A stretch of DNA of 64,000 nucleotides. Origin: an uncultured Actinomycetes bacterium (lineage in GTDB: Bacteria > Actinomycetota > UBA4738 > HRBIN12). The stretch spans positions 1,102,421 to 1,166,420 of the forward strand of contig CAVTIC010000001.1 of NCBI GenBank assembly GCA_963734685.1. Direction: 5' to 3'. Made by a program: the position numbers and the translations under genes. Each line of letters starts with the position of its first letter. The stretch's first letter is position 1. The notes beneath the pieces were generated by a model. It was not told the DNA's origin. It was given only the letters and a program-made list of their open reading frames with translations, and searched no databases. This document shows, in pieces, positions 1 to 33,905 of this stretch.

Positions 1-227
1 GCCGCGGCCTCGTCGAGCGCGTGGAACCGCCGCATCGGTTCGTGTTCCGCTGGCGACGCATCGAAGGCGCGGGGCTGCTGGGCCTGCATGCAGGGGAGCC
101 GACCCGGGTCGAGATCCTCCTCACACGGGTCGGTGACCACGCTACCCGCGTCGACATCGAGGAATCGTCGGCACCGATGCCGCTCGGCCCGGTCGCCCTG
201 GCGGCGTCGGGGAAGGGGGCGGCATGA
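1..227 (+). CDS. SRPBCC/AHSA1-like domain protein, C-terminal fragment (5' end lies outside the window)
   Basis: ORF tail '...EPPHRFVFRWRRIEG...' resembles the conserved SRPBCC (activator of Hsp90 ATPase-like) core; 4-nt ATGA overlap with the downstream ArsR gene. Confidence 0.5.
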   Translation, partial: RGLVERVEPPHRFVFRWRRIEGAGLLGLHAGEPTRVEILLTRVGDHATRVDIEESSAPMPLGPVALAASGKGAA

Positions 228-574
228 CCGGCTCCGGACACGACGACGGCAGCCATGGCGACCGCGACCGCGTCGATCTCGTCTTCTCGGCGCTCTCGGA
301 CCCGACCCGCCGAGCCGTGATCCGGTGCCTGTCCGACGACGGTCCCACCACGCTTGCCCGGCTCGCCGACGAGCTGCCCGTCACCCGCCAGGCGGTCTCG
401 AAGCACCTGGCGGCGCTCGAGCATGCAGGCCTGGTGACCACCGCGATCGCCGGTCGCAGCCGCACCTACCGACTGACCCCCGGTCCGCTCACCGAGGCGA
501 TGGGGTGGATGGTCGATGTCGGCGCCGAGTGGGACTCGCGACTCGACGCGCTCCGCCGCTACGTCGAGCGATAG
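224..574 (+). CDS. ArsR/SmtB family transcriptional regulator
   Basis: 116 aa; winged HTH stretch 'LSDPTRRAVIRCLSDDGPTTLARLADELPVTRQAVSKHLAALEHAGLV' typical of the ArsR family; SRPBCC+ArsR pairing is a common arrangement. Confidence 0.75.
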   Translation: MTGSGHDDGSHGDRDRVDLVFSALSDPTRRAVIRCLSDDGPTTLARLADELPVTRQAVSKHLAALEHAGLVTTAIAGRSRTYRLTPGPLTEAMGWMVDVGAEWDSRLDALRRYVER

Positions 575-673
575 GCCACCGACTCCCTGGCGCGCCCGAC
601 ACCCGATGCTGTCACTCCCGCGCTCAGAAGTGATGTAGGGTCCCGTTGCCGTACGACGAAACGAGGGGGAGCC

Positions 674-2136
674 ATGGGCGAGAACGTTCCGACCGCTTCC
701 GTCGGCGCTTCCGGCGCGCGCAGATCGCCCGGTCGGCCACCCACGCGGTCGTCGCGACGCAGGTCGATCGCCGTCGTGCTCGCCTCGGCGATAGTGCTCG
801 CAGCCGTGCAGGCGGTCGGCCCGATCGCATCCACGGCGGCCCCGACGCCGTCCCAACATCGTCTTGATCGTGACCGACGACATGCGCTGGGACGAGATGC
901 AGCGCATGCCGACCGTGCAGGCCGAACTGATCGGTAAGGGGGCCGGTTCCAGAAGGGGTTCGTCGTGAACTCGCTGTGCTGCCCCAGCCGCACATCGATC
1001 TTCACGGGCCGGTACTCCCACTCGACCGGTGTGTGGACGAACTCGGGCGCATTCGGAGGCTTCGCCGCGTTCAAGAAGGTCAAGGATCGACCATCGCGAC
1101 CTGGCTGGATGCCGCCGGATACCGAACGGGCCTGTTCGGCAAGGTCATGAACGGATATTCGTCGAAGCGCGCGGCCACCGTCCCTCCGGGGTGGGATCGC
1201 TGGGTCTCGATGGTCCAGCCACCCAACTACTTCAACTACAACCTCAGCGTCGACGGCCAGGTTGCCCACTACGGGTCGGCAGCCCGCCGACTACTCCACC
1301 GACGTATTGGCCGGGTACGCCCAATCATTCCTGAACGGGCTTGCGCCCGACGAGCCCTTCTTCATGGAGTTCGCACCGTACGCCCCTCACTCGCCGTTCA
1401 CGCCCGCGCCGCGGCATGCCAACAGCCTCGCCGACTACCAGCCGATCTCGCCACCGAATGCGGCCGAGGCCGACGTCTCCGACAAGCCGGCTTGGGTGCG
1501 CGCGTTGTCGGGGGGCAAGAACTGGAACAGCAAACGCAAGGCGCAGATGCAGACGCTGCTCGCGGTCGACGACGCGATCGCCAACATGATCTCCCTCCTC
1601 GGCGACGCGGGTCGGCTCTCGAACACGTTGTTCGTGTTCACAGCCGACAACAGTCTCTCGGGCGGATCCCATCGGTGGACCGCGAAGGAGACCGGATGGG
1701 ACGAGGCGCTCCACGTTCCGTACGTGGTGCGCTACGACCCCGCTCACCGGCGGCGTAGCGCACTACGCCGGACGGGCTGGTCCTGAATATCGACATCGCA
1801 CCTACGATCGCGGACCTGGCGGGCGTCGCTGCTCCAGGGGCAGACGGGGTCTCCCTCCGTCCGCTGCTGAACGGAACCGTTACGTCCGTGCGGACGGACT
1901 TCGGCATCGAGCATCTGCAGAACGGTGGCAATCCGCCGAGCTACTGCGGCGTCCGAACGACGACGCACAAGTACATCCGGTACTCGACCGGCGAGGAAGA
2001 GCTCTACGACCTCATAGCCGATCCGTTCGAGATGCAAAGCAAACACGCGGACCCGGCGTACGCGGCCATCAAGGCGTCGTTGCGCGCGCGAGCGCAAGCG
2101 CTCTGCTCGCCGACGCCGCCCGGCTACTCGTTCTGA
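674..2136 (+). pseudogene. Cys-type sulfatase (arylsulfatase / N-acetylglucosamine-6-sulfatase family) disrupted by at least 5 frameshifts
   Basis: Signal peptide (674..) followed by sulfatase motifs spread over four reading-frame segments: 'PNIVLIVTDDMRWDE' (frame 0, about 852-966), 'FVVNSLCCPSRTSIFTGRYSHSTGVWTN' (CxPxR formylglycine motif, 965..), 'STIATWLDAAGYRTGLFGKV' (976..), 'ADYSTDVLAGYAQSFL...LFVFTADNS...GWDEALHVPYVVRYDP' (1262..1786), 'LVLNIDIAPTIADLAG...YIRYSTGEEELYDLIADPFEMQS' (to 2136). Junctions near 850, 940, 1075, 1255 and 1760; three could be resolved and lie in homopolymer G/C runs. Confidence 0.7.
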
Positions 2137-2768
2137 GGGAGCGTCTCCCCCGAGCCCGGGGGCGGGGGTAGGTCGCGCGGGCCCGAGGGTCCGACCCCGC
2201 GGCGATGCCGCCACGCTCGTCGCACGCCCCAGATCAGCAGCGTGAAGAGGGCGACGACGAGTAGGAACGCCACCACGGGCACGATCACCGCGGTGAACGA
2301 GAGCAGCGTCGAGATGGAATCCTCGCCGAGCGAGAGCACCGGATTCCCGGCCCCGCCGGTGAACGCCGTCGAGGCCGGGCGGACGATCGTCCGCGCCCCG
2401 TGGGTCGCACCCGCCGCCGCCACCCCGAGCACGATCGCGAAGGCCGGGTCGACCGAGTCGTCGCCGGTGGCGGCGAGGGCGACGAGCGCGCCGGCGACCG
2501 GCGCCACCACGACGCCTATCGCGTGCAGCACGGAATCGATCGCAGGGATCTTGTCCCCGACGAAGTCCACGACGGCGATCACCGCGATCGCCAGCATGAC
2601 GCCGGGGTCGGCGAGACGGTCGTACGGCGCGTCGAGCGTGATCAGGTCGGTCCAACGTGCGAGTCCGCCCAGGATCAGCAGGGGCAGATAGGCGTTCAGG
2701 CCGGCCGCCGTCGACAGGCCCAAGGCGGTCATCAGTGAGATCACGGCGTCGGTCATGCCGGCCTCCAC
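2124..2768 (-). CDS. DUF4126-family integral membrane protein
   Basis: 214 aa, multi-TM, Gly/Ala-rich helices matching the DUF4126 pattern; immediately downstream of the PAP2 gene on the same strand. Confidence 0.55.
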   Translation of the reverse strand: MEAGMTDAVISLMTALGLSTAAGLNAYLPLLILGGLARWTDLITLDAPYDRLADPGVMLAIAVIAVVDFVGDKIPAIDSVLHAIGVVVAPVAGALVALAATGDDSVDPAFAIVLGVAAAGATHGARTIVRPASTAFTGGAGNPVLSLGEDSISTLLSFTAVIVPVVAFLLVVALFTLLIWGVRRAWRHRRGVGPSGPRDLPPPPGSGETLPQNE

Positions 2769-2935
2769 TATCGCAGGGAGAACCCGTCCGATCGCGCGGG
2801 GTCGCTGAACATGCCCAGCTCAAAGGGGGTTTCGGCTGCCCCGTGGAGGCGTCCGCCGTGCGTCGAGGAGCTGCCGGTGGACGGACCTCCGAGACCGCGC
2901 AGGTCGTGCGCGCACCGTATCCCGCGGCAGCCGCG

Positions 2936-3628
2936 TCACGATCCCGACGGGTCTCGGGGCGGCGGGCCGGGCGCGGGCGGGCGTGGGCGGATCAGCAGGT
3001 TGACGGTGCTGCCGGCGACCGCGCCGAGGGCGGCACCTCCGACGACGTCGAGGGGGAGGTGAGCTCCGACGTACATGCGACCGAAGAGCACGGCGAACCC
3101 GAGCACGAGCGCAGCGATCGCCCACCGAACCGACAGGTGGGCCGCCACGACGACGGTGAGGGCGGCGGCAACGGCCGCGTGTCCCGACGGGTAACCGAGG
3201 CTTCCCTCGCCGAACACCTCTCTGTTCTCGACACCGGTCAGCAGGGCGGCGGGTCGTCCGCGCTCCACGATGGGTTTGACCACGATGGCCAGGAGATAGA
3301 CGCCGACACCGGCGAGCAGCATCGCGATCGCCAGGCGGAACCGCCGGAACACGAGGGCGACCACGGCCAGGGCAGGGATCGTGATGAAGGTGCCGTACTG
3401 CATGACCGGCCACACCACCGTGTAGAGGCCCTGCGGCATGTCGTTGATCGCGCGGAACACGGTGACTTCGGCGTCGGAGAGCGCCGCCTCGGCAGCCAGG
3501 GTGCTCAGCGCGAGCACCGCGGTCGCGATCCCCAACACGATGAGGTCCCACTTCCTTCGGGCGATCGCCGACGCTGCGGTATCTCGCTCCGGCGCCGACC
3601 GAGGGCGAGCCGACGCTTCCTCGCTCAC
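2936..3628 (-). CDS. PAP2 superfamily phosphatase (membrane phosphatidic-acid/undecaprenyl-PP phosphatase-like)
   Basis: 230 aa, 5-6 TM; PAP2 motifs 'YPSGH' and 'GAHLPLDVVGGAALG'. Confidence 0.75.
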   Translation of the reverse strand: MSEEASARPRSAPERDTAASAIARRKWDLIVLGIATAVLALSTLAAEAALSDAEVTVFRAINDMPQGLYTVVWPVMQYGTFITIPALAVVALVFRRFRLAIAMLLAGVGVYLLAIVVKPIVERGRPAALLTGVENREVFGEGSLGYPSGHAAVAAALTVVVAAHLSVRWAIAALVLGFAVLFGRMYVGAHLPLDVVGGAALGAVAGSTVNLLIRPRPPAPGPPPRDPSGS

Positions 3629-3878
3629 GGCCTTCCCCCCTCGTCGTCGTGCAGCCCGGCCGAGTATGCGTCAGGGGCTCGCCCAGAGCCAGCCCAGCCC
3701 GGCACATCCTGGGCACACACGCGGGAGGACCACGCGCGGGCCATGGGGACGTGATGACACGTTCGTGATCCCGTTTCACCCGCTCAGGGCGTGTCTCCGT
3801 GTCAGGGCCTCGCGCTCTCCATCCCGCAGGAAGAACGGGCTAGGATTCGCCTCACCGCGGACAGGGAGGTCGCGATCG

Positions 3879-5537
3879 ATGAGCGTGGAACGACCGGCCG
3901 GCCTCGACGCACGCGATCGATCGAAGTTCCGGCGGCGACCGTCGGGTGACCCAGCGCCGTTGCCGCGCCACCTCGACCGGGGAGGCTGGGTGCTGGTCGG
4001 CGCGGGCGTGCTGCTCGTCGCGGTCAGCATCGTCGTGGGTCTGCCGTCGTTCAGCGACATGATGTTCCGCTTCGAGGGCGGCATCGGGGCCTTGGTGGGG
4101 GAGTTCCGCGTGCCCTGGCTCACCACGGTCATGCGCGGGATCGACACGATCTCCGACACCACCGTGGTGTGGGCGCTCCGAATCGCGCTGATCGTGGTCC
4201 TGGCGATCACCAAGCGGTGGTGGCACCTGCTCACCTTCATCGGTGTGCTTGTGGTCGTCGACGGCCTGTCCGCCTTGATCCTCGATGTCGTGGCTAGGGT
4301 CCGGCCCGTGAACGTCACGATCCTCACCGGGTGGCGGGGGTTCTCGTACCCCTCGATCGCGATCGTCACGCTCGCGGTGACGCTGATCCCGATGGTCTAC
4401 TCGCTCGTGCCGGGCGGGGAGGGCCGCCGGAGAGCCGGCTGGATCGTGGCGGGACTGATCGCGCTCGCGAGCGTGGCCCACGCATACCTCGGCGCGTCGC
4501 ATGCGCTCGACGTCGCGGCGGGAGCGGCGCTCGCCGCGACCGTAGCGATCCCGGCGTTCCGGTACTTCGTGCCCGAGGGGCTCGCCCCGGTGTCGTACGG
4601 AGGAGGGAACGCCGCGCACCTCGACCTCGGGGGCGAACGCGGACGGGCGATCCGCGAAGCGATCGAGGAGCAGCTCGGCTACACGGTGGAGAACGTCGCA
4701 CCCTTCGGCGAAGCGGGCTCGGGGGCATCGACCCCGATGCGGATCAAGATCGCGGAGCTCGAGGTGCCCCTGTTCGCGAAGCTGTACGCGACCCGGCACG
4801 TGCGCGCCGACCGCAACTACAAGATCGCCCGAACGGTGCTCTACGGCCACCTCGAGGACGAAACCCCGTTCGGCTCGGTACGCCGTCTGATCGAGTACGA
4901 GGACTACGCGCTGCGTCTGCTCACCGACCTCGGCGTGCCCGTCGCGGAGAACTACGGCATCGTGGAGCTCACGCCCGATCGCGAGTACATGCTGGTCACC
5001 GGCTTCTTCGAGGGGGCCTCGGAGATCGGGGACGCCGAGGTCGACGACACGGTCATCGATGAGGGGCTCCGGCTGGTCCGCACGTTCTGGGACAACGGCC
5101 TCGCGGCACGAGACGTGAAGCCCTCGAACTTCCTGGTGCAGGACGGGCATCTGCGCATGATCGATGTGTTCTTCCTGGAGGTGCGGGCCTCGTCGTGGCG
5201 GCAGGCCGTGGACCTCGCGAACATGATGCTCACGCTCGCCCTGCGCAGCGAGCCCGAGGTGATCTACGAGCACGCGCTTCGGTACTTCACCCCCGCCGAG
5301 ATCGGCGAGGCGTTCGCCGCCATCAAGGGCCTCGCGGTGCCCACCGAACTGTCGTCCGCGATCAAGAAGGACTCGCGCGACCTGGCCGCACGCTTCAAGG
5401 AGCTCGCTCCGTCCACACCCCGGATCTCGATCCAGCGGTGGAGCCTGCGCCGGGTCGGCCTCATCGCGGCCGTCCTGTTCGGCGGGCTGATTGCGCTGCT
5501 CGTGCTGATCGCCACGCTCGGGTCGGGGCTCTCGTGA
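3879..5537 (+). CDS. Membrane PAP2-like phosphatase domain fused to an eukaryotic-like (Kdo/RIO/ePK-type) kinase domain, with a C-terminal TM anchor
   Basis: Start moved to ATG 3879 (RBS AGGGAGG 8 nt upstream) because the longer ORF overlaps the divergent PAP2 gene. N-terminal ~230 aa has 6 TM plus 'SHALDVAAGAALA' (PAP2 motif 3). Soluble region has kinase signatures 'PLFAKLY' (beta3 Lys), 'ARDVKPSNFLV' (catalytic loop D-x-K-x-x-N) and 'MIDVFF' (DFG-like). Ends in a TM helix. Confidence 0.6.
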   Translation: MSVERPAGLDARDRSKFRRRPSGDPAPLPRHLDRGGWVLVGAGVLLVAVSIVVGLPSFSDMMFRFEGGIGALVGEFRVPWLTTVMRGIDTISDTTVVWALRIALIVVLAITKRWWHLLTFIGVLVVVDGLSALILDVVARVRPVNVTILTGWRGFSYPSIAIVTLAVTLIPMVYSLVPGGEGRRRAGWIVAGLIALASVAHAYLGASHALDVAAGAALAATVAIPAFRYFVPEGLAPVSYGGGNAAHLDLGGERGRAIREAIEEQLGYTVENVAPFGEAGSGASTPMRIKIAELEVPLFAKLYATRHVRADRNYKIARTVLYGHLEDETPFGSVRRLIEYEDYALRLLTDLGVPVAENYGIVELTPDREYMLVTGFFEGASEIGDAEVDDTVIDEGLRLVRTFWDNGLAARDVKPSNFLVQDGHLRMIDVFFLEVRASSWRQAVDLANMMLTLALRSEPEVIYEHALRYFTPAEIGEAFAAIKGLAVPTELSSAIKKDSRDLAARFKELAPSTPRISIQRWSLRRVGLIAAVLFGGLIALLVLIATLGSGLS

Positions 5538-6112
5538 CCCGGCCGCGCGCCCTCTTGCTGCTCGTCGCACTCTCGCTGTTGGCGCTCCCGGCCTGCGGCT
5601 CCATCGTGAGCCGTCCCGACGCGCGTCCGATGTGCTTCGATGACAACCGCGCGGTGATCCTTCTCGCACAGGCCGTGCCCGATGCGACCTGGGTGCCGTG
5701 CGTGGAGCGCCTCCCCGCCGGGTGGGACTGGGCCTCCCAGAACATCAGGAGCGGCTCGGGCGTATTCGTGCTCAGTCTGGGCACCGCGGCCGCCAGCACG
5801 GTCACCGTCACCCTGTCGCCCTCGTGCGAGACCGACGGCATGGAGCCGTTCAACGTGTCGAACACCGATGCGTCGATCTCCGGGTATCGGAAGCTGTCGA
5901 CGGATGCGGGCATCACCGGGGACTACCGCTTCGTCTTCTCCGGCGGGTGCATCACGTGGACGTTCGCGCTCGAGGCGGGCACGCCCGAAGCCATCCTCGA
6001 CGAGGTCGACAACGCGCTCGGCTTCCTGTTCCGGCCCGGCTTGGCCCACAGGCTCGAACGCGACGACGACGTGCGTCTGTGCGGCGCCGGTTCCCCCCCT
6101 TGCGAGGGGTAG
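5534..6112 (+). CDS. Putative lipoprotein (hypothetical)
   Basis: GTG start with GTGA overlap onto the upstream stop; signal peptide plus lipobox 'LALPACGS'; 192 aa, Cys-containing extracytoplasmic domain. Confidence 0.5.
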   Translation: MTRPRALLLLVALSLLALPACGSIVSRPDARPMCFDDNRAVILLAQAVPDATWVPCVERLPAGWDWASQNIRSGSGVFVLSLGTAAASTVTVTLSPSCETDGMEPFNVSNTDASISGYRKLSTDAGITGDYRFVFSGGCITWTFALEAGTPEAILDEVDNALGFLFRPGLAHRLERDDDVRLCGAGSPPCEG

Positions 6113-7103: not shown

Positions 7104-7526
7104 ATGGCGAAGAGGCAGGGCAGCCGGCCCACACGCACGCCGCTGGGGCGCAACCGACGCGCCGAGTTGAACGTGATCGACTTCACGCTCGCCAAGCGCG
7201 CCCTCTTGCGCGACGCGCAGGTGGGCGTACTGGGCATGACCGACATCTGCGACGCACACCCCGAGCTGATGCGGGCAGCGAAGCACGTGGGCGAGCCGAC
7301 GAGGCACGATTGCCCGGTCTGCGGCAAGGCGAAGCTGGTGCTGCTGGCCTACGTCTTCGGCGAGGGGTTGCGCGACCAGAACGGCCGCGTCTGGTCGATC
7401 GACACGGGTCTGCGCATGACGGCCGCTCACCCCGGTTCCAGCTGCTACGTGGTGGAGGTCTGCACCTGTTGTCAGTGGAACCACCTTCGCGAGGCGTTCA
7501 CCGCCCGCCACAGCGCCACCGGCTGA
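7104..7526 (+). CDS. DUF5318 family protein (conserved ponA1-adjacent protein, M. tuberculosis Rv0049-like)
   Basis: 140 aa with conserved Cys cluster 'HDCPVCGKAKL...CYVVEVCTCCQWNHL'; sits immediately upstream of the class A PBP as in mycobacteria. Confidence 0.6.
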   Translation: MAKRQGSRPTRTPLGRNRRAELNVIDFTLAKRALLRDAQVGVLGMTDICDAHPELMRAAKHVGEPTRHDCPVCGKAKLVLLAYVFGEGLRDQNGRVWSIDTGLRMTAAHPGSSCYVVEVCTCCQWNHLREAFTARHSATG

Positions 7527-7638
7527 GCGCGCCGATCCCCGCGAAGGCTGCGATGCAACCGTATCTCCATCGCACCGTCACACTGCCGAAGACCGCAGAC
7601 GGCATGTCGGCCGATGTCGCCCGATACAATCGAACGTC

Positions 7639-9855
7639 GTGTCGACCGAAGCCCCCACACGGCCCGAAGGGGCCAAGCACGTTCCCAAGCACGCTCCCAG
7701 CACGCGGAAGAAGGGATCCTTCCGACGATTCTGGTGGGTGTTCGTCCTCGTGCCACTGCTCGTGGTCGCGGCGCTGTTCGGATCGCTCTACGTTGCGTAC
7801 GCGCGCATCGAGCTGCCGGAGACCCTGCCGCCGATCCGCACCAGCTTCCTGTTCGACCGCAACGGCGAAGTCCTCACGTCGCTGCACGGCGCGGTCGACC
7901 GCAAGATCGTCGGGCTGAAGCAGATCTCGGACAATCTCGAGCACGCCGTGCTCGCCACCGAGGACGCCGGTTTCTACGAGCATCCCGGCATCGACGTGCG
8001 CGGCATCGTCACCGCCGCCTGGACCGACCTCGTGAAGCGCGACACCGTCGTCGGCGCCTCGACGATCACGCAGCAGCTGGTGAAGAACGTGTATGCCGGG
8101 GAGTACATCGAGCACCCGAACGGCACCCAGGAGTACATCGTGCCGCCGCGCACGATCAAGGAGAAGATCCGCGAGGCCCTGCTCGCGATCAAGGTCGAGC
8201 AGGAACTCTCGAAGGAGCAGATCCTCGCGAAGTACCTCAACACCGTGTACTTCGGCCACGGCGCATACGGGGCGGAGGCGGCTGCCCAGACCTACTTCGG
8301 CCATCCTGCGTCCGAGCTCACCGTGAACGAGTCCGCCGTGCTCGCCGCGGTGCTGCATGCACCGAGTCTCTACGACCCGATCAAGAGCAAGTTCGACAAC
8401 GAATTCCGGCGTGACTACACGCTCGACCAGATGGCGAAGTACGGCTACATACCGGGGAGCGAGGCGACGCGGCTGAAGGAGCTGCCGTGCTGCGGCATCC
8501 CGAAGTCGCAGAAGGAGGAGGGTGCGCGCATCTCGAGCCCACCCGAATGCGACTGCGAGTACTTCATCGAGTGGGCGCGCTCCGATCTGTTCCAGCTGTA
8601 CGGGAGTGCCCGCGTGTACGGCGGCGGTCTGCAGATCACCACCACCCTCGATCTCGAGCTCCAGCAGATGGCCGAGGACGCCGTCGACGCCAACCTGCCC
8701 GCGAAGAACTACCTCGGTGAGCCGAACCCCTCCGCCGCCCTCGTCACGATCGACAACGCGACCGGCGAGGTGCTCGCCATGGTCGGCGGCCGCAACTGGG
8801 AGCGCTCGAAACTGAACCTCGCGACGCTGCCGTGTGAGGGATGCGGACGCCAAGCCGGCTCCGCCTTCAAGCCGTTCACGCTGGCCGCCGCGTTGGAGCA
8901 AGGGTTCGCTCTCACAGGGAAGTATTGGTCGGGCCCGTCCACGATCACGATCCCCGACGAGCAGTGCGCGGGGCCAGACGGCCTCTGGACGCCGACGAAC
9001 GCGGGCGACAGCTCCGCGGGCACCGTCGACCTCTACGGCGCCACGCAGAACTCGGTGAACACCGTGTTCGCCCAGCTCGTCTCGGCCCTCGAAGGTGGGC
9101 CCGCCGCCGTGGTCGACATGGCCCACCGGCTCGGCATCGAGTCGGAGCTCCCCGCTGTGTGCTCGATCACCCTCGGCAGTGTGCAGATCAACCCGCTCGA
9201 GATGACGAACGCGTACGCGACGCTCGCCGACCAGGGCACGTATCACCGGGCGAACCCGCTGCTCGAAGTGAACCGTCCCAATGGGCAACCCGCCGACAAG
9301 CGGGTGTCCTCCCCGGCCAAGGAAGGCAAACTCGAACCGGCCTACGCGAACCAGGTCACCTACGCCCTGCAGGCCGTGATCCAGGGTGGCACCGGGTCGT
9401 CGGCGTCGATCTACCCGTGGCCGGCCGCCGGCAAGACCGGCAGCGCGCAGGACAACGTCGATGCCTGGTTCTGCGGTTACACGGTGCAGCTCACGACGTG
9501 CGTGTGGGTGGGCTACCCCGACCAGCAGACGCCGCTGATCAACGTCGAGGGCGTGTCCACCGTCTACGGAGGCACGATCCCGGCCGCGATCTGGCACGAC
9601 TTCATGCTGCAGGCGATGGACTACGGCCAGCAGGAATGGGACTACTCGCTCATGCAGTTCCCCGACTACGAGCTGACGGGCGAGCTGGGGCCGCCGACCG
9701 TGGTCGCCTCGCCGACCCCGCCCCCGCCGCCGTCACCGAGCGAGGACCCTTCACCGAGCGAGGAACCCTCCCCGAGCGAGGACCCGAGCCCCTCGGGCGA
9801 CCCGAGCCCCTCGGGCGATCCGAGTCCGTCGGACGATCCCTCGCCGACGCCCTGA
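7639..9855 (+). CDS. ponA1: Class A penicillin-binding protein 1A (bifunctional transglycosylase/transpeptidase)
   Basis: 738 aa; N-terminal TM; GT51 motifs 'EDAGFYEHPGIDVRGI', 'QQLVKNVY', 'KEQILAKYLNTVYFGHGAYG'; transpeptidase 'SAFKPF' and 'KTGSAQ'; Pro/Ser-rich C-terminal tail. Confidence 0.92.
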   Translation: MSTEAPTRPEGAKHVPKHAPSTRKKGSFRRFWWVFVLVPLLVVAALFGSLYVAYARIELPETLPPIRTSFLFDRNGEVLTSLHGAVDRKIVGLKQISDNLEHAVLATEDAGFYEHPGIDVRGIVTAAWTDLVKRDTVVGASTITQQLVKNVYAGEYIEHPNGTQEYIVPPRTIKEKIREALLAIKVEQELSKEQILAKYLNTVYFGHGAYGAEAAAQTYFGHPASELTVNESAVLAAVLHAPSLYDPIKSKFDNEFRRDYTLDQMAKYGYIPGSEATRLKELPCCGIPKSQKEEGARISSPPECDCEYFIEWARSDLFQLYGSARVYGGGLQITTTLDLELQQMAEDAVDANLPAKNYLGEPNPSAALVTIDNATGEVLAMVGGRNWERSKLNLATLPCEGCGRQAGSAFKPFTLAAALEQGFALTGKYWSGPSTITIPDEQCAGPDGLWTPTNAGDSSAGTVDLYGATQNSVNTVFAQLVSALEGGPAAVVDMAHRLGIESELPAVCSITLGSVQINPLEMTNAYATLADQGTYHRANPLLEVNRPNGQPADKRVSSPAKEGKLEPAYANQVTYALQAVIQGGTGSSASIYPWPAAGKTGSAQDNVDAWFCGYTVQLTTCVWVGYPDQQTPLINVEGVSTVYGGTIPAAIWHDFMLQAMDYGQQEWDYSLMQFPDYELTGELGPPTVVASPTPPPPPSPSEDPSPSEEPSPSEDPSPSGDPSPSGDPSPSDDPSPTP
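9727..9855 (+). repeat. Tandem ~18-nt coding repeat (about 6 copies) encoding (P-S-P-S-[EGD]-[DE/P]) at the 3' end of ponA1
   Basis: DNA 'ccgagcgaggacccttca ccgagcgaggaaccctcc ccgagcgaggacccgagc ccctcgggcgacccgagc ccctcgggcgatccgagt ccgtcggacgatccctcg'; protein 'PSPSEDPSPSEEPSPSEDPSPSGDPSPSGDPSPSDDPSPTP'. Confidence 0.7.
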
Positions 9856-9900: not shown

Positions 9901-12078
9901 CTACGAGGCCTCGTGCAGCGCCGAGCCTCGTGAGGCGGCCAGCTCGTCGAGCGGCAGTGACGCGATGATCGACGTGCCCCGCCCCGGCGAGGAACGCACG
10001 ACGAGCGAGCCGCTCGCGAGCTCGACCCGTTCCCGCATCGAGGCGAGCCCGACGCGACCGTCCCGCAGGAAGTCGCGCGCGAGTGCCGCGTCGAACCCCT
10101 GCCCGTCGTCCTCGACCTCGACACGCAGCTGCGAGTCGTTCGCCTCGACGATCACGCCGACGTGCGTCGCCTCCGAGTGCTTGGCGACGTTCGACAGCGC
10201 CTCCTGCACCACCCGGTAAGCGAGCGTCTCGAGGTCCTCGGGCAGCGGCACGTCGACCCGCCCGGAGAAGTCGGTGTCGACGCCTTGGTCGGCACCGAAC
10301 CGCACCAGCGTCTCGCGCAGGGCCGCGAGCAGGCCGCGTTCCTCGAGCACGGGTGGACGCAGCCCCGACATCAACCGGCGCAGGGCGTCGGCTTCTCCTG
10401 CGAGCTCCTCGCGGATCTTCGTGAGCACCTCGACGCCCTGGTCCACGTCGCCGGCCCTGATCATGAGCAGCGCGGCCTCGAGCGAGAGTGACGCGGCCGA
10501 GACGCCTTGGACCGGCCCGTCGTGCAGGTCGCGAGCGATGCGGTTGCGTTCGCCCTCGATCGCGGCGTTCGTGCGCCGCATCAAGCGGCTGCGGTCCTCG
10601 TCGCGGTCCTGCAGGAACTGGAACAGCGACCGGATCGTCTGGTCGGCGACCCGGGCCGCGGTCACGTCGCGCACGAGCAGCAGGGTGCGCGGCGGCCTGG
10701 TGGGCACGGCCGAGGATCGCGACTCCAGGTGTAGCACCTGTCCGTCGGTGCGGGAGATCTGCGATTGCCCGCCCTGAGGCAGCAGGGCGAAGGCTTGGTC
10801 GGCGCCGACGACCACCGAGGCCAGAGCCGTCCACGGCTGGTCCTCGATCGACCCACGGGGCAGGGTGATCATCGATGCGAAGGCCTCGTTCGCTCGCAGC
10901 ACGACCCCTCGTTCGTCGAGTTCCACGACACCGTCGACCGCTGTCTCGAACACGAGCCGAAGGTGCTCCTCGGACTGGCGGAGCGTCTCGTTCGCCTCTC
11001 GGACGCGCTCGAGCGCCTCGTCGGTCTCCTGCAGGGCGCGCTCCTTCTGCTCCAGCGCGTCGCGCGCCTCCCGATACGCCGCCGTGCTCGCGCTCTGGTT
11101 CGACAGGATCCGGGCCGCGATGCCGAGACCGAGGAGCAGGATGATGGCGGTGGACTGCTCACCATCGAGCCCGCGCTCGTCGTCGACGATCGCCACGGCC
11201 GCGAGCGCCGCGCAGGCCGTCACGACTGAGAAGCTGGTGAGTACCGGCCGGGCCCAGCGCCGGGGGGCGACGTGCGAGTCGGCCCCGTCCCCGATGTCGC
11301 CGTCGAGCAACGCCCAGGCGGCGAACGCGAGCGGTGCCAGCAGGAACGGCAGCGCGATCGATGGCATCGTGCTGTCGAACAGGCCCCTGGTCCAGTTCCA
11401 CCCGAAGGTCGCGGTCGCCGCGGCCGTGCCCGCGAAGATACCGAACAACACGAGATGGCGACGCGACGGCGCCCACAGCAGGAGCGCGCCGAATGCGGCG
11501 AGCTGGGTCGCCGTGAGCACGCTGAAGATCGCGGCCGTCATCGAGGCCTCGGGCGAGGCGTCGAAGGGCCGAACCACCATGTACATCAGCGCGGTCACCG
11601 ACGCGACGATCAGGAACACGTCGGTGCCGATCTCCAGGCCGTCGCGCTCGTCGAAGTGGTCGCGGAACTCGGCTCGCGCGAACAGCATGATCGGCGCGAG
11701 GAACAAGGCGAATGCGAGGTCGATCACCGGGGGCTCGAAGCTGCCGGTCCCCCGCACGTCGGGGACGAGCAGGAAGACCCCGTTGAGCAGTCCGATCATG
11801 AACAACGCGTACGCGAGATGTACCGTGCCCCGCCACGCATGACCGAGCCCAACGCCCCGCAGGATCATGCCGCCCGAGAGCAGGCACACGCCCGCCACCA
11901 TGGCCTCGGTCGCCTGGGTCTGCTGCTCCGATCTGGCAGGGAAGGCCAGGTAGGTGAGCACCGCGCCGAGCCCGACCACGGCGAGGAACAGCCCGGTGGC
12001 CACGCGGGCGCGTGGACGAACGGCGACGTCGCTCATGTGGGAAACATGATGCCCGCTCGGGGCACCTGACTCCATCAC
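9901..12078 (-). CDS. Membrane sensor histidine kinase (multi-TM sensor, PAS, HisKA_3, HATPase_c)
   Basis: 725 aa; about 9 N-terminal TM helices, coiled-coil, PAS-like region, H-box 'ERNRIARDLHDGPVQ' (HisKA_3), ATPase region with 'DDGQGFD' and 'GLASMRERV'. Confidence 0.85.
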   Translation of the reverse strand: MMESGAPSGHHVSHMSDVAVRPRARVATGLFLAVVGLGAVLTYLAFPARSEQQTQATEAMVAGVCLLSGGMILRGVGLGHAWRGTVHLAYALFMIGLLNGVFLLVPDVRGTGSFEPPVIDLAFALFLAPIMLFARAEFRDHFDERDGLEIGTDVFLIVASVTALMYMVVRPFDASPEASMTAAIFSVLTATQLAAFGALLLWAPSRRHLVLFGIFAGTAAATATFGWNWTRGLFDSTMPSIALPFLLAPLAFAAWALLDGDIGDGADSHVAPRRWARPVLTSFSVVTACAALAAVAIVDDERGLDGEQSTAIILLLGLGIAARILSNQSASTAAYREARDALEQKERALQETDEALERVREANETLRQSEEHLRLVFETAVDGVVELDERGVVLRANEAFASMITLPRGSIEDQPWTALASVVVGADQAFALLPQGGQSQISRTDGQVLHLESRSSAVPTRPPRTLLLVRDVTAARVADQTIRSLFQFLQDRDEDRSRLMRRTNAAIEGERNRIARDLHDGPVQGVSAASLSLEAALLMIRAGDVDQGVEVLTKIREELAGEADALRRLMSGLRPPVLEERGLLAALRETLVRFGADQGVDTDFSGRVDVPLPEDLETLAYRVVQEALSNVAKHSEATHVGVIVEANDSQLRVEVEDDGQGFDAALARDFLRDGRVGLASMRERVELASGSLVVRSSPGRGTSIIASLPLDELAASRGSALHEAS

Positions 12079-33791: not shown

Positions 33792-33834
33792 GCGCGACGC
33801 GCATCCCCCGACCGAACGCGGTGCTCGCTCGCTG

Positions 33835-33905
33835 AGCGGGTGAGGGGAATCGAACCCCCGTCTCGAGCTTGGGAAGCTCACGTTCTGCCATTGAACCACA
33901 CCCGC
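33835..33905 (-). tRNA. tRNA-Gly (anticodon CCC); 3' CCA not encoded
   Basis: Reverse complement reads 'GCGGGTGTGGTTCAATGGCAGAACGTGAGCTTCCCAAGCTCGAGACGGGGGTTCGATTCCCCTCACCCGCT'. 7-bp acceptor stem GCGGGTG/CACCCGC; anticodon loop TTCCCAA; T-loop GGTTCGATTCC; closely resembles E. coli tRNA-Gly(CCC). Coordinates +/-2 nt. Confidence 0.85.

Follow-up and report, generated by a model that had tools for sequence, protein, structure and literature searches.

A putative PAP2 pseudo-phosphatase joined to a protein-kinase-like domain in an actinobacterial envelope locus: a candidate receptor kinase

Introduction

Known Ser/Thr receptor kinases sense their signals via soluble domains, such as PASTA, and little has been learned about the means by which Gram-positive bacteria and actinobacteria keep track of the lipid-linked intermediates of their envelope, among them polyprenyl phosphates and phospholipid phosphates. 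In this work, we analyse a 64-kb stretch of DNA from an uncultured Actinomycetes bacterium (contig CAVTIC010000001.1, positions 1,102,421 to 1,166,420), hereafter the window, in which one gene codes for a protein combining a PAP2-fold domain of six transmembrane (TM) helices, a protein-kinase-like domain, and a seventh TM helix (TM7). This fusion gene is flanked by a divergent gene for a canonical PAP2 phosphatase and, on its other side, by a gene for a lipoprotein (Table 1). Literature searches for PAP2–kinase fusions retrieved no description of this family, in agreement with the original prediction made from this DNA, which had not recognised the architecture as a characterised one, and the family is not covered by any model of Pfam or NCBIfam. 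A receptor-like bacterial kinase with a putative pseudo-phosphatase sensor appears not to have been described before, and its partner domain belongs to an unnamed family.

Among bacterial Ser/Thr kinases, the commonest layout is a kinase with a C-terminal TM helix, according to an atlas of 42 families, the text of which mentions neither PAP2, RIO, nor Bud32; the PknK-type kinases, which carry several further domains, provide a precedent for multi-domain fusions in this group. The Hanks-type transmembrane kinases, such as PknB and StkP, resemble the present family in that one TM helix links the cytoplasmic kinase to a sensor outside the membrane (on the same chain in the long relatives), and in that both have the HRDxKxxN loop together with the Lys, Glu, and Asp residues of the catalytic set. 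However, the family reaches 13 to 28 bits with the Pfam Pkinase model against a cutoff of 31.7, lacks the activation segment and the APE motif, has an extra helix between strand beta3 and helix alphaC, carries a 6-TM putative pseudo-PAP2 domain N-terminal of the kinase, and uses a sensor other than PASTA. RIO and Bud32 proteins differ from it by their catalytic loop (HxDLSxxN or HGDLTTSN, instead of HRDVKPxN), and the family is membrane-embedded and devoid of any ribosome or KEOPS (Kae1) context. With regard to the membrane domain, the Lys of C1 and the His residues of C2 and C3 found in PAP2 phosphatases such as B. subtilis PgpB/YodM, E. coli PgpB, and LpxE are missing from the family. As a putative pseudo-enzyme, it is in principle similar to the eukaryotic PAP2-like proteins PLPPR/PRG.

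M. tuberculosis MviN begins with a polytopic membrane domain (MurJ), to which a kinase-like domain is joined, followed by one TM helix and lastly an extracytoplasmic domain (PMC12599244). The overall layout is the same, and both are actinobacterial envelope proteins (PMC12599244), but the membrane domain of MviN is active and its kinase dead, whereas in the present family the membrane domain is apparently dead and the kinase looks live, and no homology links the two beyond the kinase superfamily. In Segetibacter, the novel kinase-like gene SEAE1 lies beside a PAP2 gene and a gene for a secreted protein, a set that the authors of that work interpret as a lipid module (bioRxiv 10.64898/2026.09.18.752743). 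SEAE1 differs in being a PIK-like kinase of Bacteroidota, restricted to its lineage, with neighbouring rather than fused genes and without a pseudo-PAP2. The Lipocone paper covers other families, not the PAP2–kinase fusion.

Loss of the Catalytic Residues in the Fused PAP2 Domain

The fusion protein has no significant match in Pfam or NCBIfam, so its domain assignment rests on homologues and structure. Hydropathy and the AlphaFold2 (AF2) model (mean predicted local distance difference test, pLDDT, 79.8) concur in six TM helices between residues 34 and 230, a disordered linker, a soluble domain, and a TM helix, an architecture which had been proposed from the sequence and is borne out here. The gene is real, as 3808 homologues at E ≤ 1e-3 were found among 8000 candidates scored. 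Its nearest contig is JGI 3300047519 (L086), with 96.5% DNA identity over the fusion gene, and its best GTDB match is 52% identical; a look-up by exact sequence retrieved none of the three proteins of the locus. Residue conservation was counted over the query and its 120 best homologues (48–99% identity), making 121 aligned sequences.

The fused domain has the six-helix fold of PAP2 proteins, for which the reference motifs are C1 KxxxxxxRP, C2 PSGH, and C3 SRxxxxxHxxxD. The C1 Lys, the C2 His, and the C3 His at its canonical position are each found in 0 of the 121 sequences. In the window protein, the C1 Lys is replaced by Leu, PSGH by PSIA, and the C3 site reads AHAYLGASHALD; the family consensus for C2 is SMPSRP, and the position of the C3 nucleophile is occupied by Asp, Glu, or Ser. 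The phosphatase motif ascribed to this domain by the original prediction therefore survives as a remnant only (Leu in C1, PSIA, and a shifted His), though the fold itself was correctly recognised. The shifted residue, His208, lies one position later than the C3 His and occurs in only 75 of 121 sequences; being Ala in 33, it does not represent a conserved substitute nucleophile. Position 211, Asp in the window protein, is Ser or Ala in 45 sequences. Within the window clade, S207-H208-x-x-D211 is kept in 19–20 of 20 sequences.

Little or no variation is seen in the 121 sequences at the phosphate-binding residues R140, R142, P143, S156, P158, and S159, and C3 residue 201 is an Arg in 103 of them and a His in the window protein. 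The latter has no PAP2 match in Pfam at E ≤ 0.1, and among ten homologues scanned with this model, eight scored 26.8–35.2 bits (cutoff 27.2), one scored 16.1, and one had no match. Judging from these residues, the fused PAP2 domain is a pseudo-phosphatase, its catalytic residues having been lost family-wide. Since the binding residues are kept and the catalytic ones lost, its probable role is to bind a lipid carrying a phosphate or pyrophosphate, which it would leave uncleaved.

Topology and the Partner Lipoprotein

By the positive-inside pattern, the N-terminal tail (9 Lys/Arg), the KRWWH loop, the GGEGRRR loop, and the 298-residue kinase segment are cytoplasmic, and the loops carrying the C1, C2, and C3 remnants are external. 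TM7 is a helix at residues 523–551 in the AF2 model, with a hydropathy peak at 526–544. In 10 of the 120 homologues (724–760 residues), it runs into a domain of about 165 residues homologous to the lipoprotein encoded downstream of the fusion gene in the window, with 33–37% identity and E-values of 1e-21 to 1e-26 in nine of them, and 27% identity (E = 4e-15) in P0072. As TM7 leads to a homologue of the lipoprotein, and lipoproteins are extracytoplasmic, the kinase is placed inside and the PAP2 pocket outside. The layout is that of a receptor, with an ectodomain after TM7 in the long relatives and a split-off, translationally coupled lipoprotein in the window. With the membrane separating pocket and kinase, the two cannot form a kinase/phosphatase cycle at a common site. 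The cycle of lipid head-group phosphorylation and dephosphorylation on a single polypeptide, suggested earlier, is thus unlikely, the more so as the catalytic residues are missing in all 121 sequences.

The GTG start codon of the lipoprotein gene at 5534 overlaps the TGA stop codon of the fusion gene (GTGA, 5534..5537), which implies that the two are translationally coupled, and the same 4-nt overlap is found in the gene calls of the relatives L081, L083, and L086. For comparison of gene neighbourhoods, 80 related loci were drawn from GTDB species genomes; 76 of these have enough downstream DNA, and in 67 of them the gene immediately downstream, with the orientation of the fusion gene, is a homologue of the partner. 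Of the context genes listed in the original prediction, only this lipoprotein is a conserved partner. Its N-terminus, VTRPRALLLLVALSLLALPAC/GS, comprises a signal peptide and a lipobox Cys, and lipoboxes are present in many of its orthologues.

A single-sequence search with the partner gave two matches, and a profile built from the loci retrieved 357 relatives, all labelled 'hypothetical', unnamed, and devoid of Pfam domains. The partner itself has no Pfam match, and its profile has no match in the PDB at E ≤ 1. Its fold is of the Mog1/PsbP/LpqN type, with Tsi3 (8.9), Mtc28 (8.5), LpqN (8.4), RseB (7.4), PsbP (7.3), MucB (7.2), Apa (6.9), DcrB (6.9), and the PknH sensor (5.4) as structural neighbours. 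The partner shares this fold with Mog1, PsbP, LpqN, Mtc28, and DcrB-like proteins without sequence similarity, and has its own conserved Cys pattern and motifs (AQAVPSAT..PC, GGCVTY). The fold recurs in actinobacterial envelope proteins involved in lipid binding or sensing (LpqN, Mtc28, RseB/MucB, PknH sensor). We consider the partner lipoprotein to be the split-off ectodomain of the system.

The Protein-Kinase-Like Domain

The kinase hallmarks first noticed in the translation are indeed present, FAKLY at 4773-4787 and ARDVKPSN...IDVFF within 5103-5177. A Foldseek search with the domain gave as best match the Kae1–Bud32 fusion 3en9_B (2e-6), followed by many eukaryotic-type protein kinases (ePKs), which confirms the protein-kinase-like fold of the C-terminal module. 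K301, E341, D412, K414, N417, and D429 are found in 121 of 121 sequences, and the glycine-rich loop (G277, G280, G282) is conserved. The beta3 Lys, the alphaC Glu, the HRDxKxxN loop, and the DFG Asp that define Hanks-type kinases are all present, and the family consensus of the catalytic loop, HRDVKPxN, is of the ePK Ser/Thr type. The His of HRD is replaced by Ala only in the window clade (19 of 20 sequences), and DFG is replaced by DVF. When the kinase part alone was used as query, 1013 clusters (50% identity) were retrieved at E ≤ 1e-3, including 294 at E ≤ 1e-30.

With regard to family assignment, the Pfam Pkinase score is 13.2 bits for the window protein and 16.6–27.6 bits for the nine homologues with a match. 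The RIO1 model (PF01163) has no match in the window protein; some homologues reach 25–27 bits (gathering threshold 22), their matches covering only model positions 43–148 of 187. Kdo/WaaP (PF06293) remains below the gathering threshold. At the sequence level, similarity to ePKs and Bud32 is confined to the region of the catalytic loop, and the structural neighbours also include RIO1/2/3, APH, the choline kinase LicA, and WaaP. Instead of the RIO loop HxDLSxxN with IDxxQ, the domain has (H/A)RDVKPxN and IDVFF; the Bud32 signature loop is not matched either, and no Kae1/TsaD-like gene was found among the conserved neighbours. From motifs and model, the domain is best regarded as a separate protein-kinase-like family, outside RIO, Bud32, Kdo, and Hanks Pkinase as these are defined. 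The family further possesses an invariant acidic loop, YGxLEDExPF (residues 322–331), which could be a counterpart of the N-terminal motif described below.

Relatives, Domain Architectures, and the N-Terminal Motif

Relatives are present in at least 195 GTDB species genomes, mostly of Actinomycetota, including Acidimicrobiia, Frankiaceae, Streptosporangiaceae, Nanopelagicales, and Geodermatophilaceae, the last with a cultured carrier, Blastococcus sp. KM273128 (locus L057, NZ_SSXA01000013.1). The family also occurs in a few metagenome-assembled genomes assigned to other phyla, and some genomes have two paralogues. Several architectures were found besides the basic one. P0259, P0261, P0264, and P0374 (about 1370–1400 residues) have an N-terminal STAND NTPase with TPR, P0274 and P0299 an N-terminal receiver domain (REC), accompanied by a LuxR helix-turn-helix in P0299, and P0362 is a standalone form of kinase and TM helix. 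In P0279 (924 residues), a canonical PAP2 with intact motifs is followed by the RRRPSG motif, the putative pseudo-PAP2, the kinase, a TM helix, and the ectodomain. The added STAND-TPR and REC-LuxR modules are all placed at the cytoplasmic N-terminus. The REC-LuxR, STAND-TPR, and ectodomain fusions suggest signalling, instead of the lipid metabolism envisaged by the original prediction.

Ahead of TM1, proteins of the basic architecture carry a motif of the form RRRP(S/T)GEPPPLPR, in which R19, R20, P21, S/T22, G23, E24, P26, L28, and P29 are conserved at 90% or more. Every sequence keeping the N-terminus has S/T22, save one with an Arg, and P0279 and P0299 preserve the motif at an internal position despite the upstream fusions. 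It is a plausible candidate for a phospho-acceptor site (autophosphorylation) or a docking site.

Linkage with a Canonical PAP2 Phosphatase

The product of the divergent gene, described from the outset as a canonical PAP2 with a YPSGH motif, matches Pfam PAP2 with E = 4e-16 and has all three catalytic motifs intact (KPIVERGRP, YPSGH, GRMYVGAHLPLD). Among proteins of solved structure, LpxE (6ebu, E = 3e-10) is nearest to it in sequence, and the L086 counterpart is 96% identical across 182 aligned residues. The start of the gene is ambiguous, either the GTG at 3628 or an internal start. The protein is apparently an active PAP2 lipid-phosphate phosphatase.

A PAP2 similar to that of the window is encoded within 6 kb of the fusion in 28 of the 45 loci with full flanks (41 of 80 overall), and P0279 contains both in one chain. 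The link with a canonical PAP2 is therefore real. The density of PAP2 matches around the fusion is about 6-fold higher within 1.5 kb than between 1.5 and 6 kb. The linked PAP2 is mostly downstream on the strand of the fusion, the divergent upstream arrangement of the window being found in seven loci. In the clade of the window, a divergent or adjacent PAP2 exists in L081, L083, L084, and L086, and is absent in L085. No other PAP2 besides the divergent gene was found in the 64-kb window, nor a second copy of the fusion or of the partner. A recent duplication of the neighbouring PAP2 as the origin of the putative pseudo-PAP2 was considered and rejected, BLASTP similarity between the two not being significant (E = 11).

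As to further genes near the fusion in this clade, a gene for a flippase-like protein (PF03706, LPG_synthase_TM) adjoins the PAP2 gene upstream of the fusion in L081 (3287-4429), L083 (3146-4246), and L084 (1627-2727), and MBOAT and GDSL/DUF459 genes lie downstream of the fusion in L085. The window carries none of these.

Proposed Function and Alternatives

As a tentative proposal, somewhat short of what we would call probable, the three genes (2936..6112) may form a module of the envelope. At its centre would stand an atypical Ser/Thr kinase of receptor type, which signals and has a pseudo-phosphatase as its lipid sensor. The fusion protein crosses the membrane seven times, exposing at the outer leaflet an apparently dead PAP2 pocket with its Arg and Ser phosphate-binding residues, and the co-translated lipoprotein would most likely complete the sensor on the same outer face. 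The kinase, with its full catalytic set, is held on the inner side of the membrane by TM6 and TM7, and the state of the ligand outside would shift the geometry of these two helices and hence kinase activity. Cytoplasmic targets would then be phosphorylated, the candidates being the RRRP(S/T)G tail of the protein itself and the regulators fused at the N-terminus (REC-LuxR, STAND-TPR). The adjacent active PAP2 would be the likely enzyme whose substrate pool or activity is monitored or controlled. We favour signalling because the HRDxK loop is of the ePK type, because relatives are fused to signalling modules and to an ectodomain, and because the S/T motif is conserved. The architecture, the missing phosphatase residues, the conserved kinase residues, the topology, the partner with its fold, and the linkage and fusions of the genes are shown by the analysis, and we infer the binding of a ligand, its identity, protein-kinase activity, and the substrates.

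Several observations weigh against this proposal. No activation segment or APE motif is present, only about 10 residues separating D429 from the next helix. Among the closest structural neighbours of the kinase are enzymes acting on small molecules (APH, choline kinase, WaaP), as well as RIO and Bud32, which resemble ATPases; the fold alone does not establish protein phosphorylation. In the window clade, ARD replaces HRD and H201 replaces the C3 Arg. The genes neighbouring the fusion in relatives (PAP2, LPG_synthase_TM, MBOAT, GDSL) would suit a role in metabolism just as well. The surroundings of the locus revealed neither a conserved substrate in the cytoplasm nor an FHA protein or PP2C phosphatase, and the N-terminal motif falls in a region of low confidence in the AF2 model (pLDDT <50).

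The first alternative is that of a membrane-tethered lipid or glycolipid kinase, which would phosphorylate a head group (polyprenol, diacylglycerol, or glycolipid), the pseudo-PAP2 serving as a lipid-binding scaffold and the neighbouring active PAP2 removing the phosphate on the outer face; the cycle imagined by the original prediction would then be split over two proteins and two leaflets. The double tether by TM6 and TM7, which puts the active site at the membrane, is in line with such a role, as are the resemblance to APH, LicA, and WaaP and to the Pfam families RIO1 and Kdo, the close genetic association with an active PAP2, to which one relative is even fused, and the lipid-related neighbours LPG_synthase_TM, MBOAT, and GDSL in relatives. 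SEAE1, from an unrelated family, has likewise been proposed as part of a module of PAP2 and protein-kinase-like proteins acting on lipids (bioRxiv 10.64898/2026.09.18.752743). However, the pseudo-PAP2 pocket is on the leaflet opposite the kinase, and a lipid kinase on the cytoplasmic face needs no extracytoplasmic lipoprotein or ectodomain. The catalytic loop of APH and choline kinase is HxDxxxxN, whereas that of the family is the ePK Ser/Thr form HRDxKxxN with an invariant Lys414. Furthermore, the REC-LuxR and STAND-TPR fusions and a basic N-terminal motif containing S/T are hard to explain in a metabolic enzyme. A lipid kinase is thus unlikely in our view, signalling remaining the reading that we prefer.

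As regards what a signalling kinase of this kind would sense, the pocket and the lipoprotein might form a receptor for the outer-leaflet polyprenyl (pyro)phosphate carrier or another PAP2 substrate, a specific proposal that we regard as decidedly speculative, its chances being poorer still than those of the lipid kinase.

RIO1/2/3 and Bud32, the closest structural relatives of the kinase domain, act mainly as ATPases or switches. By analogy, the domain could be an ATP-driven switch without a separate phosphorylated substrate, gating the partner PAP2 or moving polyprenyl phosphate between leaflets. The absence of an activation loop and the rigid insertion of the kinase between two TM helices would suit such a device, and the conserved cytoplasmic loops of the pseudo-PAP2 (RWRH at 113–116, R183) could couple it to the kinase. 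The signature loops of RIO (HxDLSxxN) and Bud32 (HGDLTTSN) are missing, however, the PAP2 fold shows no evident transporter-like cavity, and the REC and STAND fusions favour signalling, which makes the switch very improbable.

Finally, a truly bifunctional enzyme, as assumed by the original prediction, hydrolysing or transferring phosphate via non-canonical residues such as His208 with Ser/Asp207 and Asp211, would accord with the S207-H208-x-x-D211 of the window clade and the conserved R140, R142, and S159, but is the least credible possibility, given that the three canonical catalytic positions are lost throughout the family, that with Ala at 208 in 33 sequences and Ser or Ala at 211 in 45 no alternative catalytic set is conserved family-wide, and that a substrate cycle shared across the membrane is impossible without flipping.

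Organisation of the Locus and Surrounding Genes

The features of the locus are collected in Table 1. The fusion ATG at 3879 is preceded, 9 nt ahead, by a GGGAGG Shine–Dalgarno sequence, and no sigma-70 consensus site was found in the intergenic region between the divergent genes. A longer fusion open reading frame (ORF) starting at 3438 was rejected as unsupported, since it overlaps the divergent PAP2 gene. Compared with L086, the DNA of the window is 87.7% identical over 1-3705, with 108 gaps, and 96.5% identical over 3701-5917, with 4 gaps.

Table 1. Features of the fusion locus and their positions in the window
Feature	Position	Strand	Remarks
Canonical PAP2 gene	2936..3628	(-)	230 aa, divergent from fusion gene
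Divergent intergenic region	3629..3878		250 bp, presumed promoters of both flanking genes
Fusion gene	3879..5537	(+)	552 aa; cytoplasmic tail, putative pseudo-PAP2 (6 TM), atypical kinase, TM7
Conserved cytoplasmic N-terminal motif RRRPSGDPAPLPR	3930..3968	(+)	Fusion residues 18-30
PAP2-fold 6-TM domain without catalytic residues	3978..4568	(+)	Remnant pocket toward outer leaflet
Cytoplasmic protein-kinase-like domain	4632..5405	(+)	Residues 252-509
Kinase key residues	K301 4779-4781, D412 5112-5114, D429 5163-5165	(+)	
Juxtamembrane segment and C-terminal TM helix (TM7)	5445..5531	(+)	8-aa external tail
Partner lipoprotein gene	5534..6112	(+)	192 aa; lipobox LPAC, 6 further Cys

The neighbours named in the original prediction (DUF4126, a lipobox protein, DUF983) were correctly identified, but DUF4126 and DUF983 are not conserved neighbours: neither these two nor the cupin, DUF5318, class A penicillin-binding protein (PBP1), and sulfatase-like genes have a tblastn match in the 80 related loci, which places them outside the system. 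An ArsR neighbour has a match in two of the 80. Secondary clusters of ORFs (truB, rpsO, pnp, infB, rbfA) were also considered as system genes and rejected, as they reflect clade-specific synteny only.

The sulfatase-like gene (PF00884; 674..2136, (+)) is split over several frames in the window and intact, with 481 residues, in L086; it is either a frameshifted pseudogene or affected by indel errors. Further downstream (7104..9855, (+)), the DUF5318 gene is followed by a 738-residue ORF resembling class A PBP, with a C-terminal repeat rich in Pro, Ser, Asp, and Glu (PSPSEDPSPSEEPSPSEDPSPSGDPSPSGDPSPSDDPSPTP). A 725-residue ORF (9901..12078, (-)) has a multi-TM N-terminus and a C-terminus that resembles, by eye from the translation, a sensor histidine kinase of HisKA_3 type. 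The sole RNA gene detected in the window with ARAGORN and Rfam is a tRNA-Gly(CCC) (33834..33905, (-)), far from the fusion locus.

Implications

In databases, relatives of the fusion protein are named 'phosphatase PAP2 family protein' or 'phospholipid phosphatase/Bud32', and the present analysis corrects this annotation for proteins labelled as PAP2 phosphatases though the canonical phosphatase residues are missing. Their catalytic-looking part is the unclassified protein-kinase-like domain, and the partner lipoprotein represents a domain family without a name. Should the speculative receptor for a carrier lipid or another PAP2 substrate prove true, this would be the first receptor kinase derived from an enzyme that has lost its activity and now senses the substrate of its active counterpart. 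The recycling of carrier lipids or the lipid homeostasis of the envelope would then be coupled to cytoplasmic Ser/Thr phosphorylation, for instance of the tail of the kinase itself or of LuxR-type regulators, and, in turn, to control of the adjacent active PAP2. With this family, the idea of a lipid-phosphate sensor embedded in the membrane and joined directly to a kinase gains a candidate that can be tested.

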